Below are positions 3,076 through 17,821 of a DNA stretch of 64,000 nt, in pieces (positions within the stretch are counted from its first letter, which is position 1; every line of letters starts with the position of its first letter). The position numbers were made by a program, and so were the translations under genes. The stretch comes from Narcine bancroftii (taxonomy: Eukaryota). The notes under the pieces are model-generated. The model searched no databases. It was not told where the DNA came from and was given only the letters and a program-made list of their open reading frames with translations. The stretch is taken from positions 51,088,001-51,152,000 of the forward strand of contig NC_091475.1 of NCBI RefSeq assembly GCF_036971445.1, written 5' to 3'.

Positions 3076-6017
3076 TTTTTTTTAATACTTTATTTTAATT
3101 TTGTGGTATAACATGTATTGAGAAATAACTATTACTTAAATACATAAATTGAAATTTTAAAAAATCAATGGTACAAGTTGTCCATATTTCCAAACAGCCC
3201 CAACCCCCCTCCCCCAAACAAAACCTGAAATAGAAAAGAAAGAAGGAGAAAATGGATAAGAGAGAAAAATAGAAAAGCAGGAAAAATAAGAAAGAAAGAA
3301 GAACTGTCAGGATCTGGGATCCACTTCAGAGGATCTAATTCCTTTTCTTGCCTAGATCTCAAATAGGGCAAATGACAAGCATATAGAACCAGGTACAGAA
3401 TAAGTATCCCTAAATATCCCCATCTTCTGCAAGTGTGGCTGCCATAACTGCAACAACATGTTATACTACTTCCTTAGATTAGAAGTAATTTTTTCAAGAA
3501 GCAAGTATGGACTTCCGCATTCCATCGGGCTATATCCAGAAGAGAATCAGGCTTCCAAATAACAGCAATACATTTTCTGGCCACTGCCAATGCAATTTTA
3601 AGAAATTCTAATTGGTCATTAGACAGCCTCATTTTAGGTCTTATGTCCACAATATTTCCGAAGAGAAACAATTCAATACTTTGTGGCAATTGTTTCCCAA
3701 TAATCTAGTTAATAAAATTCTTAAATTTTCCCAAACATTTTTCACTTTAGACCATGGCCAGGTGGAATCTAAAATGTTCCTGTTTCTTCCCCACATCTAA
3801 AATATATATCCGATATATTAGAATTTAATTTATGTAATTTCTGCGGAGCAAGAAGTTGTATTGGTCATGCTATCCTGACATAAATTGGACCATTGTTTAT
3901 CACCAATGCTAATACTCAGGTCTGATTCCTGCCTTTGTTTTGATTTGTATAACTCTTGCTTGGGAGTTCCCGTCTGAAGTAAAGAATATATTGCAGATGT
4001 AAACTTCCTCGTGATCCCCTTTCGAATCAGGATCTCAATTTCACTGCACTCTGGTTACATCATCTGGTCCAAATTTGTAGCAGAAGATTGATATTAGGAA
4101 TATTATATCTATTTGTTTCAAACTGCTCAAAAGACACAAGTTGCCCTTGCAGGTAACAAAATCTTCTACATACCTGATGTGATAGTACAGGATACTATCA
4201 CCAATGTATATTTGTTTATATTTTCTTATAGTTGTGATTGGCTGAGAGCCGTAGCCACGCCTACTGGCAGGTCATAAAGGGCTGCTCCTAACCAGACCCA
4301 GATCAGTCTGGACTGGTCGATCGTGTTGTAATACACTCCAGTCTTTTGTTGATTAAAGCCTTGGTTTGAGTTAACAAATCTTTGAGTCATTCGACGCGCT
4401 GCAATTTAATCAACAAAAGTTTCAAAGGATGGAGCGAATGCTCCGACCAGAACGCCTCAGCATTGATGTGCAGTCGGCTACTGCCCAGAGTGACTTTAGG
4501 CACTGGATGTGATGCTTTGAGGCATACCTGCAGCGATCAGACCCCATCATGGAGGAAGACGCAGACAAACTAATAGTGCTAAAGTCCTCAGTATCCTCGA
4601 GGGTCTACGAGATCATCCAGGACGCACCCTCCTACAAGGAAGCCATGGATGTGCTGAAGGGACTCTACGAACAACCTGTGAACAAGGTCTGCCAGGCACA
4701 TGCTGGCAACCAGGAGGCAGCAGCCCGGTGAGTCCTGCAGAGCCTATCTCCAGGCACATCCTTTCCAGTTACTGGGGAAAGCATGTGCATGCACCGAAAA
4801 AACTGCGGCTGGGATCATTGATAACCTCATCAGAGATGCTTATGTGACTGGGGTCCGATCTAACGAGGTGAGGCAACAATTGATGGAGAATTGGGGAGAC
4901 AGCCTGGTTAAGACAGTGAAAATCGCTGAAACAATGGAGGCTGCAGCCCTAACCATGGATGCTTATACTCAGGGCTGGGACCCTCGTTATGATGAAAGTA
5001 GAAATCCTGTACTTAAACCAGCCTCCCCATGCCACATCAATGGCCTCAATGCCCCCGCACTGCCCAACGCGGCCCTGAAGTGCTACTTCTGTGGGAAGGA
5101 GAAGTACAGCAGATCCCTGTGCCTGGTGAGGAAGGCCCGATGCCAGAAGTGTGGGAAGAATGCCATTTCGCCGCTGTCTGCCGGTCTAAAATGTCCATCG
5201 CCAAACACAGTGCCTCATGTGAGGCCCAACTGTGTTCCCCAAATTCAAATCTCCCGTCCTCAGACCTCTCATCCAATGAGAGCAAGGGATCGACCGTGCG
5301 GCAATGCTTGACGTCACGATGCAAGCACCACTTGCGGAAGACTCTGCCCACATAACTCCCCACCCTCGCCGCAGTGATGCTGATATCCAACGCAGCCCAC
5401 CCACCCAACGGAACCTGCGAGCCCGCAGGCCCCGAGAAATTACCTGCCGCTGTGCTTACCGCCAACTGCGGCCGACCCCTACCTGCTACTGCCGCCGACT
5501 GTAGCCTTGGTTTGAGTTAACAAGTCTTTGAATCATTCGACGTGCTGCACCTGATCCCTTTCTGAGACCAGGCATGTCAAATCTTATTATCCATTGTTAA
5601 AGAAATTAATCTATTTTGAGTCGAGGGTATTTTGAAAATCTTTTTGTTCCAATTAAATTATTTAATTTATTCCAAATATTCAAAATGTTTTATTAGAGGT
5701 GTTTCTTTTCCACCAGAAGTAGATTTTAGTGTCTCATTTATATACAAGATCTTCTGCTACTCTCTCTTCGATTTTGTGCAGTTCAATTTGCACCCATGAA
5801 GGTTTGTCTTTTCTGTCAAAGAGGGAAGTAAACAATTCCATCTGGGCCACTCAATAGTAATATTTAAAATTTGGAAGTTGCAAAGCCCCAGTATGGTATT
5901 TCCAAGTTAATTTTTCCATGGAGACTCTGGCTAATTTACTTTTCCAAAGAAACTTCCTAACCAATTTATTCAAATTTTGAAAAAAAACTTCTGTTGTAAT
6001 GGCACAAGAACAGTCTG
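3076..6017 (-). mobile_element. 5'-truncated L1-clade LINE, interrupted by a Gypsy element
   Basis: Poly-T (poly-A tail on minus) at ~3076, ORF2 C-terminal motifs LKIALAVARKCIAVIWK and KFLWKSK..RVSMEKLTW..GALQLPNF; degenerate TSD tatcctctggcct / tatccttagtctt. Confidence 0.8.
4178..5549 (+). mobile_element. Internally deleted Gypsy LTR retrotransposon: 5' LTR 4178-4403, gag remnant, partial 3' LTR 5503-5549
   Basis: TG..CA ends, perfect 5-bp TSD CCTGA (4173-4177, 5550-5554), gag start MERMLRPERL at 4429, zinc knuckles CYFCG..CQKCGK, last 47 nt of LTR repeated. Confidence 0.92.
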
Positions 6018-8800: not shown

Positions 8801-9045
8801 ATCAATTACCTACACAATAAATAAGACCCACACTGGTCTTGTGGTAGTAAGTGCAAAAGTGGTTTGTGTTGCTCTTGAGCTGTCAACCAAGGAGTTGGTT
8901 TTGACCCCAAGCTATGGACTCCTGCATGAATCAGGCTTAAAGGCAACAGTGCGGCTCTATAACAGAAGAAACTACCCTGCCCAGTTCAGCTGGAATCCAA
9001 TCCTCACAGAAGCAGGAATGGCATTCTTCATCCGACCTGATGGAG
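8801..9045 (+). CDS. CFAP47: CFAP47 exon (SITYTINKTH..VRLYNRRNYPAQFSW..FFIRPDG)
   Basis: Polypyrimidine tract plus gcag| at 8800, g|gtagct donor; 245 nt, phase 2 to 1, open frame. Confidence 0.92.
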
Positions 9046-9133: not shown

Positions 9134-9627
9134 CTTCTTCTTTGGCTTGGCTTCGCGGACAAAAATTTATGGAGGGGGTAAATGTCCACGTCAGCTGCAG
9201 GCTCGTTTGTGGCTGACAAGTCCGATGCGGGACAGGCAGACACGGTTGCAGTGGTTGCAGGGGAAAATTGGTTGGTTGGGGTTGGGTGTTGGGTTTTTCC
9301 TCCTTTGCCTTTTGTCAGTGAGGTGGGCTCTGCAGTCTTCTTCAAAGGAGGTTGCTGCCCGCCAAACTGTGAGGCGCCAAGATGCACGGTTTGAGGCGAT
9401 ATCAGCCAACTGGCGGTGGTCAATGTGGCAGGCACCAAGAGATTTCTTTAGGCAATCCTTGTACCTTTTCTTTGGTGCACCTCTGTCATGGTGGCCAGTG
9501 GAGAGCTCGCCATATAACACGATCTTGGGAAGGCGATGTTCCTCCATTCTGGAGACGTGACCCACCCAGCGCAGCTGGATCTTCAGCAGCGTGGACTCGA
9601 TGCTGTCGACCTCTGCCATCTCGAGTA
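9134..9627 (-). mobile_element. Young 5'-truncated RTE (BovB-like) LINE, copy 1
   Basis: Open ORF C-terminus QLRWVGHVSRMEEHRLPKIVLYGEL..C2H2-like finger..SHKRACS*, (GAA)n tail. Confidence 0.92.
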
Positions 9628-9765
9628 ACATTGACAAAAAGTCCCTGGAATGTGGTTTGGAGAAATGCAAAGAATAGATAATAAAAAATAATGAGATTGT
9701 TTTCTAAAATGCAAGTTAAGCAAATATTATTTTGTCCTATTAACCAGATACTTTTCCAAATAATA

Positions 9766-14519: not shown

Positions 14520-16643
14520 ATTTGTCCAGAATAGGGTCCAAACAAAAATTGAAGTCACTCTCTGCAAGTATATTTTGTCGTCCCCTGAAACCTTGAGGAA
14601 CATATCTTTAATAAAGGATTCATCATCATAATTAGGTGTGTATAGGTTCAAAAAATACCCCATGACATCTGTAAAGCTGACAATTAACTAATTCATATCA
14701 GCCTGAAAGATCAATTATAGCTTCTCCAATTGTTGCTGTTATGTTTTGTTTATCAGGATGGCTACCCCTCTGGCTTTGGAATTGTAAGATGATATTACAT
14801 GTCCACTCTCTCCTGAGTTTCTTACATTCCTGTGTAGTAAGGTGGGTTTCTTGTTCAAAGGGAATATCGGTTTTCTTTTTTTTTCAGGTGAGCTAAGACT
14901 TGTTTCCTCTTAACTTTTCCATTCCCCCTCACACCCACCCACCCACCACATACACATGACCTCCTGTAGAATCTCCATGCTGGTTAACAACAGCACTGAC
15001 ATGGTTAACAAATTTAAAAATAAGACTAAAAATAAAAATAAAAAGCCCTCCCTAACCCCCCCCCCCCCCACTTCCAATGTCGACCTGTGAACATTCAACA
15101 TTACCTCCCCCATTAGACTGGGATGTGCATATTTGCACTCACTAAGTATAGCATATCTGAGTAACATTTTACCCTGCCCAGGGCTCCTATCTCAAAAATA
15201 TAAACTATTACATAAAATTTTTCAATGTTGAATGTAACATTGCTTTTTTTTTAAAAACAAAATGCTCAACTAAGAAACAATTACTGTGAAAATCAGTCGC
15301 CATAAAAAAAACTAGTCACTTTAAATTGGTTTATATTGGAACTCTCCTATCTATTGTAGGTGGGAAAACTGACTACAGTTTAAGGCACAAATTCTCGGCA
15401 ATTCGTGAGGACCACGATTGCCTATCCAATTTTCCTCCACCTGCTTTTGCTCGCCATTTTATTTTCCTCCTGGCCAATTATGCAAGAGTGTCATTGCTTC
15501 CCTGGGCACCTTGAAGAATTTTTTCCTTCCATCAGGGTTTACAACCCTCAGTGTTGCTGGATGAAACAAGGCAAATGGGTATTCTTAGACCAAGTTTCTT
15601 CTTTACCTGGTCGAACTCCCTTCTCTGCTTCATTAGACCTGCACTTAGATCAGGAAAACATAACTCTGGCCCGTTGTCATACGTAATGGGGCCCTTGTCT
15701 TCTCTCGCATTAGATTTTTATCTTGGTCCTGATACCTCAACAGACCTATCAGTATGTGTCTTGGTCTCTGGCCCACAGATGTGCCAAGTGCAGAGACTCG
15801 ATGGGCTCTTTCAAACACTATTTGTTCATTAAAGTCTTCTCGTCCCAGATTATCTGGGATCTATCTTTTAAAAAATTTTGCAACATCCTTTCCCTCAGAC
15901 CCTTCCTTGAGGTTAACAATACAGACATTGTTTTACCTGCTGTAATTTTCTAGCTGGTCCACTTTTACCAGCAGGAAGTCATTGTTCTTTAGCATCTCAA
16001 GGGAGGAGCCCATCTCTGTTATTTGGTCCTCTGCCATCCCAATGTGCTCCTCCATGACAGCCATTTGGGTGGCCAACTGTTTAAACATGACTTTAAGTCC
16101 TGAGATGGACAGGGTAAACTCCTCCATTTGGGCATCTAATTTATTAGAGAGAACTTCATTACCACTGAATCTCTCTCCTTCAGAGAGCTCCTGAGCTGGA
16201 CATGCCAGGGATGGATCTCTCTGCAGACCTTGAGGCTTTTGTGGCAGCCATCTTACTGTTTTGCTGACATCCCTTTGCTGAGATGGATTCCACTATCAAA
16301 GCTGGATTCTGGTCAGTTACTGTATTTCTTTGTTTAAGTCCGTGTTTCTTTCTCATGTTCTAGGCATGTAACTAGTTTAAAGATGATTTTGTGTTTTTAC
16401 AGTTTTAAATGGCCACCATCTTGCTGTTTTGCCAATCTCCCATTGCTGGGATGAACTTGACTATTAAGGTTGAATTATAGTCAGTACCTGTTTTTTTTCC
16501 TTTCGCTTGAATCTTCATTTCTTGCTTTAGTTGTTCAGCTAATTTAAAGGCAATTTTGAGCATTTTTAACAGTGTTTAACTGAATTTTTCTGAGGAGCCC
16601 TGGGATTTGTGCCCTCTTATCTCCATTACATCATGTGACTCCC
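14520..16643 (-). mobile_element. L1-clade LINE 5' part (5'UTR, ORF1, start of ORF2 endonuclease)
   Basis: ORF1 motifs VDQLENYSR.NNV.IVNLKEG.EG and FERAHR; 5' end gggagtcacatgatg; endonuclease remnant (QETHL, Y.PNYDD). Confidence 0.85.
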
Positions 16644-17503: not shown

Positions 17504-17821
17504 TTACCAGCAGGAAGTCATTGTTCTTTAGCATCTCAAGGGAGGAGCCCATCTCTGTTATTTGGTCCTCTACCATCCCAATATGCTCCTCCGTGGCAGC
17601 CATTTGAGTGGCCAACTGTTTGAACATGATTTTAAGTCCTGAGATGACAGGGTAAACTCCTCCATTTGGGCATCTAATTTATTAGAGAGAGCTTCATTAC
17701 CACTGAATCTCTCTCCTTCAGTGGTTGCTCCTGAGCTGGACTTGTGCCAGGGATGGATCTCTCTGCAGACCTTGAGGTTTTTGTGGCAGCCATCTTTGCT
17801 ATTTTGCTGACATCCCTTTGC
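17504..17821 (+). repeat. Direct duplicate of 15965-16278 (internal L1 ORF1 piece)
   Basis: Colinear match, roughly 94% identity by eye. Confidence 0.9.

Follow-up and report, generated by a model that had tools for sequence, protein, structure and literature searches.

How does a Ty3/Gypsy retrotransposon begin minus-strand synthesis when no tRNA-type primer binding site (PBS) follows its 5' LTR? The question is raised by a copy located near the beginning of the window, which is the whole stretch of 64,000 nt analysed here (Narcine bancroftii, contig NC_091475.1, positions 51,088,001 to 51,152,000 of the forward strand). To our knowledge, self-priming among Gypsy elements is treated as a mark of the Tf1/sushi chromoviruses, with the primer at the RNA 5' end. 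The original prediction for this locus, made from its letters, was that the element primes with a part of its own LTR transcript, possibly as a self-priming lineage of its own.

The window copy and its family

The window copy is a dead, internally deleted Ty3/Gypsy copy (Table 1). It corresponds to positions 1-1200 of the reference copy, beyond which only an LTR remnant is found; this deletion of pol and the 47-bp remnant were missed at first reading. The TATA-like box is located 85 nt ahead of the end of the LTR segment that pairs with the PBS (the arm), both in the window copy and in a young sister family, Y. The CATAAA motif had been placed at ~4274; the motif itself stands, while its start is at 4273. 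A single spacer base (A 4404) separates the 5' LTR from the PBS. The 3' LTR remnant begins at the 3' end of the arm and has the length of the predicted strong-stop DNA. It fits a strong-stop DNA that jumped wrongly, which is suggestive only, this being a single case for which a later deletion is possible. A search for further remnants of this kind in the own family returned only the window copy and one internally deleted LTR; single-site counts gave 37 matches vs 16 and 19, and 18 of 30 inspected were LTR variants or internal deletions, none being clearly remnant-like.

Table 1. Parts of the retroelement copy, in window coordinates.
Feature	Position	Strand	Basis or remark
Left target site duplication (TSD), 5 bp (CCTGA)	4173..4177	+	Identical bases at 5550-5554
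5' LTR, TG...CA, 226 bp	4178..4403	+	30-copy alignment; TSD-flanked LTR pairs of longer copies
TATA-like box, putative function	4273..4279	+	Sequence
Initiator-like motif	4303..4307	+	Predicted transcription start at A 4305, 32 nt past the TATA-like box
Predicted self-primer, ~52-53 nt, RNA start to arm end	4305..4357	+	Two clusters of fold-back breakpoints
LTR arm pairing with the PBS	4343..4357	+	Its last six bases (4352-4357) are the poly(A)-like hexamer
Predicted cut	at or near 4357/4358	+	Boundary at which left fold-back breakpoints accumulate
47-nt loop: remaining R, U5, 1-nt spacer	4358..4404	+	Would be copied into minus-strand strong-stop DNA
PBS, complementary to the element's LTR instead of a tRNA 3' end	4405..4419	+	
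Broken gag	4429..5311	+	Stop at 4510-4512, frame changes further on; corresponds to the beginning of longer copies
Remains of two CCHC knuckles in gag	~5081-5183	+	Translation
Start of repetitive gag-protease linker	5312..5502	+	Remainder of pol, PPT and U3 absent
3' LTR remnant, 47 bp, equivalent to 4357-4403	5503..5549	+	44/47 identical
Right TSD, 5 bp (CCTGA)	5550..5554	+	Match to 4173-4177

The longest uninterrupted copy of the family has ~4.9 kb and encodes gag-PR-RT-RH-IN, with a polypurine tract (PPT) ahead of the 3' LTR and 5-bp TSDs. Pfam searches with pieces of two longer copies and with 12 intact relatives gave the pol order protease-RT-RNase H-integrase, and the best PDB match was the Ty3 Gag-Pol. 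The family is a compact Ty3/Gypsy without chromodomain, on which pol order, TG...CA LTRs, PPT and short TSD agree.

Other features were observed in the window. A direct repeat of ~360 bp (182-545 and 1897-2263, 93-99% identical) has its units 1.7 kb apart, and another of ~290 bp (15965-16254 and 17504-17796, 95-99% identical, ~1.54 kb apart) overlaps a coiled-coil-like ORF (15933-16292, minus strand). A plus-strand host exon is likely at 8801-9007, and next to it there is a minus-strand piece (9191-9703), which we take to resemble the C-terminus of an RTE-type LINE.

Pairing of the LTR arm with the PBS

As originally described, positions 4343-4357 and 4405-4419 are exact reverse complements over 15 nt, separated by 47 nt, and no TGG follows the LTR; the duplex cannot be extended outward. 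The longest match obtained from 20,000 LTR shuffles was 12 nt, and a nearby inverted match of at least 15 nt is found at 34 of ~12,700 window positions. The own 3.3-Gb genome was searched, giving 1,833 candidates, and 40 copies (that of the window plus 39 others) were scored. Watson-Crick pairs occupy 528 of 560 arm:PBS cells, while shuffling the partners leaves 483.7 +/- 6.7 (maximum 511 in 20,000). Changes on both sides were found in three columns (4349:4413, 4351:4411 and 4354:4408); these follow subfamilies and thus represent few independent events. The 15-bp stem of the original prediction is exact in the window, but its outermost pair (4343:4419) is kept in 9/40 copies, so that the conserved duplex has 14 bp. 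The arm ends in a poly(A)-like hexamer, in this copy the ATTAAA whose overlap with the putative primer had been noticed: AATAAA in 24 and ATTAAA in 12 of the 40 copies. For comparison with the three-duplex "pretzel" of Tf1/sushi RNA, the fold was predicted; it has one hairpin on the 5' side of the arm:PBS duplex and another in the loop, and z for the whole region is only -1.4.

Distant families

A metagenome scan with a single protein as query gave no match. The metagenome loci finally gathered were 68, of which 32 have a gag start and 24 of these an LTR end that could be placed, grouping into 13 families; the remaining eight of the 32 (L193, L206, L207, L209, L224, L225, L227 and L228) were dropped because their LTR end was not placeable. 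The geometry is kept in 13/13 families, with a 1-nt spacer and a loop of 35-55 nt, while the arm sequence differs in each of them; covariation of the stem, proposed as a check at the outset, is seen within the family (three columns) and also across these 13, which are the stronger test of the two. In 12/13 the last bases of the arm are AAA and the next ones GCC or ACC. Compared with 200 shuffles, the pairing of seven families was beaten by at most one and that of three by 5-18, whereas L242 pairs no better than shuffles (82/200). The two other families, L195 (14 pairs) and L216, were read by eye. A canonical poly(A) hexamer lies inside the arm in 5/13, and in L194 and L192 it is located, unpaired, in the loop. 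For these distant families the position of the transcription start could not be assigned. A short hairpin beginning at GCC/ACC just 3' of the arm was also observed in L192, L194, L195, L197, L198, L205 and L242; its role may be to indicate the position of the cut, in the manner of the side duplexes in the "pretzel" of Tf1.

Fold-back insertions

The own genome was also searched for an LTR end with the PBS behind it and then, inverted, the LTR portion that lies upstream of the arm. This pattern was found 274 times and the reversed pattern 0 times. From 90 inspected matches, 75 belong to family Y and 15 to other families (the window's own and a close one), and most fossil statistics come from family Y, whose LTR is ~70% identical to that of the window family. 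In the 240-bp LTR of family Y the arm ends at 192, and the initiator-like A, the predicted start, is at 141. Among its 1,448 exact LTR-PBS junctions, fold-backs amount to about 1 in 6 (5 among the first 30).

The left side is truncated in 46/75 family Y fold-backs. Unique left breakpoints fall at LTR positions 181-202 in 27/41 cases, with the mode at 192, that is, at the arm end (p 3e-18 vs uniform; 8e-13 under a stricter null); the peak is ~20 nt wide, so it does not place the cut to the base. As a control, the whole LTR was present at 24/25 normal junctions. On the right, the inverted copy stops short in 15/75, with 6/13 unique stops at 134-150 (p 0.001), and stops at 134-165 accompany only a whole or near-whole left LTR (10/30 vs 0/45, p 4e-5). 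Similar limits appear in the 15 fold-backs of other families, seven of which start on the left at 179-193 (the arm of the window family ends at 180). Their right stops at 130, 131 and 144 (n=3; window family and the close one) are found near LTR position 128, which is the initiator-like A 4305. We read the two breakpoint clusters as the two ends of minus-strand strong-stop DNA plus its primer, which would make the primer span from the RNA start to the arm. The original prediction had questioned whether the RNA begins at the arm, and rightly so, since fold-back copies stop near a predicted start ~38 nt upstream of it.

Among left-truncated fold-backs with a whole right end (n=32), integrase-type att ends together with a 5-bp TSD were seen in the retrieved flank of 21, and minus-sense pol is joined in 21/32; these ends, TSDs and pol joints indicate that the template was switched before integration. 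In six copies (five insertions) the sequence fits a minus strand with its end at 190-193 that folded back and was extended along its own U5, PBS and upstream R. Not all fold-backs need the same route. The inverted copy reaches the U3 start in 61/75, which requires another jump or a plus-strand snap-back, and the whole palindromes (16/75, with TSD in 13/16) are explicable without any RNA primer. An assembly artefact was considered and ruled out for most fold-backs by the TSDs and by joints in independent contigs. A single study provided four public runs with contigs that contain such joints; that these contigs are RNA is a guess, and library reverse transcription could be the source of the joints. 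No RNA start or end was found in the contigs of these runs; two contigs have an A-rich loose end ~15 nt past the hexamer, too weak for use.

Some unusual insertions were also observed. In L131 the palindrome extends into the flanks without a TSD, and it is possibly an assembly artefact. L043 (oriented 246-1730) consists of a 5' LTR, the PBS and ~1 kb of gag, to which an inverted LTR with 3 further nt is joined; with two U3 ends and a 5-bp TSD, it represents a different reverse transcription error (plus-strand strong-stop mis-primed). Three insertions (L088, L110 and L141) have in common a junction from the predicted transcription start to gag, either a microhomology hot spot or a small derivative that replicated. 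In a related family, an inverted LTR joined to a piece from the arm boundary, a nested fold-back, was found three times (L300, L301 and L303).

Proposed mechanism and alternative explanations

We consider it likely that the family self-primes with the first ~52 nt of its transcript, released by a cut, and that the pairing part of this primer is inside R. The missing tRNA site, the covariation of the stem and the fold-back breakpoints support the self-priming originally proposed. In the mechanism, bases 1-14 past the 1-nt spacer pair with the LTR arm, and this pairing is observed to be kept through matching changes. Transcription would start ~38 nt upstream of the arm, as motifs and fossil copies suggest, leaving the arm inside R. 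The RNA would then be severed at the 3' end of the arm or close to it, presumably by the RNase H domain if Tf1 is a guide, giving a 3'-OH beside U5 from which RT would copy ~48 nt to the cut end, the primer presumably staying attached to the strong-stop DNA. A long unpaired 5' tail of the primer, together with the arm and PBS repeated in one strand, may lead to read-through of the primer or to snap-back; the LTR-PBS-inverted-LTR insertions are observed as products, and this would be their route. The arm:PBS duplex may have a second use in the 5' LTR, where it would mask the poly(A) hexamer. Capped ends, cut and strong-stop cDNA are all predictions of this scheme, in which start, cut and primer retention are deduced from motifs and fossil copies.

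A host tRNA, a tRNA fragment or another small RNA could prime instead, self-complementarity being secondary. tRNA priming is the default in Gypsy, and other Gypsy families of this genome carry TGG-type sites. A tRNA primer would give strong-stop DNA up to the cap site, without LTR sequence in front. The TGG-type PBS was found in 0/40 copies, the region 4150-4500 has no match in Rfam, and the comparison of the PBS with host tRNAs, which the original prediction had recommended, gave matches of 5-7 nt at best, against a set of 30 genes of 11 anticodon types, none mitochondrial. A control Gypsy family of the same genome matches the tRNA-Ser 3' end over 14 nt. Moreover, PBS and LTR vary together from family to family, a change with which a fixed host RNA cannot keep pace, and we regard such a primer as highly improbable.

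Two other explanations keep the duplex and change its role, and we hold both to be improbable, the second by a little more. The duplex might merely keep the 5' LTR poly(A) signal hidden, priming taking another route and the fold-backs being DNA-level snap-backs at an inverted repeat. In this sense, the partner arm exists only at the RNA 5' end, the arm contains AATAAA or ATTAAA in 36/40 copies and in 5/13 distant families, and plus-strand snap-back alone explains the whole palindromes with TSD (13/16). However, the arm has no canonical hexamer in 8/13 distant families, L194 and L192 having theirs outside the duplex, and the element would be left without any other PBS; also, snap-back explains neither minus strands ending at the arm boundary nor inverted copies ending at the predicted start. 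Alternatively, the 3' LTR arm at the RNA 3' end, trimmed to the hexamer, might pair with the PBS and prime. The arm ends at the poly(A) hexamer, near the RNA 3' end, all of U3 is present in 61/75 inverted copies, and in L118 the inverted copy continues into inverted PPT and pol, as priming from the tail would give; L118 is the only one of the 75 seen to pass beyond the PPT. With a template whole to the cap, though, the strong-stop DNA should end at ~141 and not at the 181-202 seen, and inverted copies stopping near 141 indicate a primer that begins there. Cleavage of the primer from the RNA front is thus the reading that we prefer.

Phylogenetic position

Among named proteins, those of rays and sharks come closest, and further named homologues occur in a crayfish, a sea anemone, a spider, flukes, tapeworms, molluscs, moths, leafhoppers and a rotifer relative. 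Neither a Chromo nor an SH3_Tf2-1 domain was found in the 12 intact relatives scanned or among the 120 homologues listed, whereas fish sushi-type proteins, to which RT-RH is 32-35% identical, carry both. A quick RT-RH tree was built with 33 rows, including 12 sushi-type proteins and no fungal or plant chromoviruses (4/11 outgroup loci were too broken). The clade and the sushi-type proteins separate, with SH-aLRT of 100 each, and their join is weak, at 73. In this tree the clade, the fish sushi, the Gmr1-order elements and the tRNA-Ser-primed control family, which we take to be Mag-type, form one branch each. The clade thus appears as a branch of its own, and its weak join with sushi is consistent with a shared as well as with an independent origin. 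The independent lineage of the original prediction, for which an RT phylogeny had been advised, is consistent with the separate branch and the lack of a chromodomain, but the same join still allows a sister relation to chromoviruses. A decayed sushi-type chromovirus with an SH3_Tf2-1 domain is also present in the same genome (L270, G000 C5); its only part here was that of a query for reference sequences.

Comparison with known systems

The self-primer of Tf1 has 11 nt. Like Tf1/sushi, the elements described here have a PBS complementary to their own LTR and no tRNA, and according to the model the primer would also be freed by a cut, kept and copied into the plus strand. Differently, the Tf1/sushi primer is the 5'-terminal RNA segment, while here the pairing part is predicted ~38 nt inside R, in a primer of ~52 nt. 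Also unlike Tf1, the predicted primer ends at the poly(A) hexamer and the loop has 35-55 nt. The Tf1/sushi integrase has a chromodomain, absent from the window's clade. The mechanism would work like that of Tf1, and the family is set apart from Tf1/sushi by the chromodomain and, indirectly, by primer position. The HIV-1 poly(A) hairpin masks AATAAA with a duplex in the 5' R copy; it lies within R and is not a primer site. The partner in HIV-1 is located in R, while in the window's element it is the PBS itself.

In Tf1, Tf2, Tj1 and the Tf1/sushi chromoviruses the PBS is complementary to the own LTR transcript and no tRNA is used, according to the parts of the reports available to us (PMC10085805, PMC4600332), and a single-stranded PBS copy is described as retained on ~50% of Tf1 cDNA (PMC11042837, consulted in part). 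Self-priming was also predicted from LTR-PBS complementarity for plant Tcn1 (Gypsy) and TAR/Houba/Osr-1 (Copia), which, in the sections consulted, takes the trait outside fission yeast and into a second superfamily, in other hosts and lineages; in those sections we found no fossil mapping of primer ends (PMC6317226). Reports of self-priming, as far as consulted, concern Tf1/sushi, Tcn1 and some Copia lineages. Our literature search, with few subscription journals in its scope and with PMC6934838 and PMC3670739 among the papers covered, found in the portions consulted no self-primer in a non-chromoviral animal Gypsy and no internal primer.

Membership in several described clades was considered. 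The flatworm Saci2/lennie clade, as far as its description was available (PMC12471100), has 4-bp TSDs, ORFs mostly of ~1,400 aa and a PBS assigned to tRNAs. In the part consulted it resembles the present elements in being compact, with a single gag-pol ORF in ~4.9-5.2 kb, and both are found in Spirometra and Sparganum; membership was rejected, since TSDs here have 5 bp and the seven Spirometra accessions of the matching cluster are absent from Table S1 as consulted (PMC12471100). In the Gmr1 clade, according to the consulted part of PMC3601003, integrase lies ahead of RT; here RT precedes integrase and the Gmr1-order elements are another branch, so this clade was also discarded. The tRNA-primed Gypsy clades in general (Mag, CsRN1, Gmr1) are rejected by the lack of a TGG PBS in all 40 copies. 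For comparison with Cigr-1, MolGy1-16 or a Repbase-named clade, a motif search in the supplements of PMC6238403, as available, gave no match, no PBS terms were found in the accessible part of PMC12440569, and the clade name "Ouroboros" was tried and led to no relevant literature. The clade may already be listed in Repbase or GyDB.

Implications

Our broadest reading is tentative, and we think it somewhat less probable than its failure in one part or another. It would be that of an animal-wide Gypsy clade (rays, sharks, cnidarians, flatworms, molluscs and arthropods) in which self-priming evolved apart from Tf1/sushi, with a capped primer of ~50 nt ending inside R at the poly(A) signal. One duplex would both prime and silence the 5' poly(A) site, and fold-back errors, at ~1 in 6 junctions, would record the primer ends.

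If true, the mechanism would be widened to a chromodomain-less animal clade with a longer, internal primer, which bears on whether tRNA-free priming had a single or a repeated origin. Annotation tools and models of silencing by tRNA fragments would miss or mis-assign PBSs of this kind. Furthermore, fold-back insertions would allow reverse transcription intermediates to be charted with nothing but genome sequence, and the RNA ends that they predict are exact and testable.
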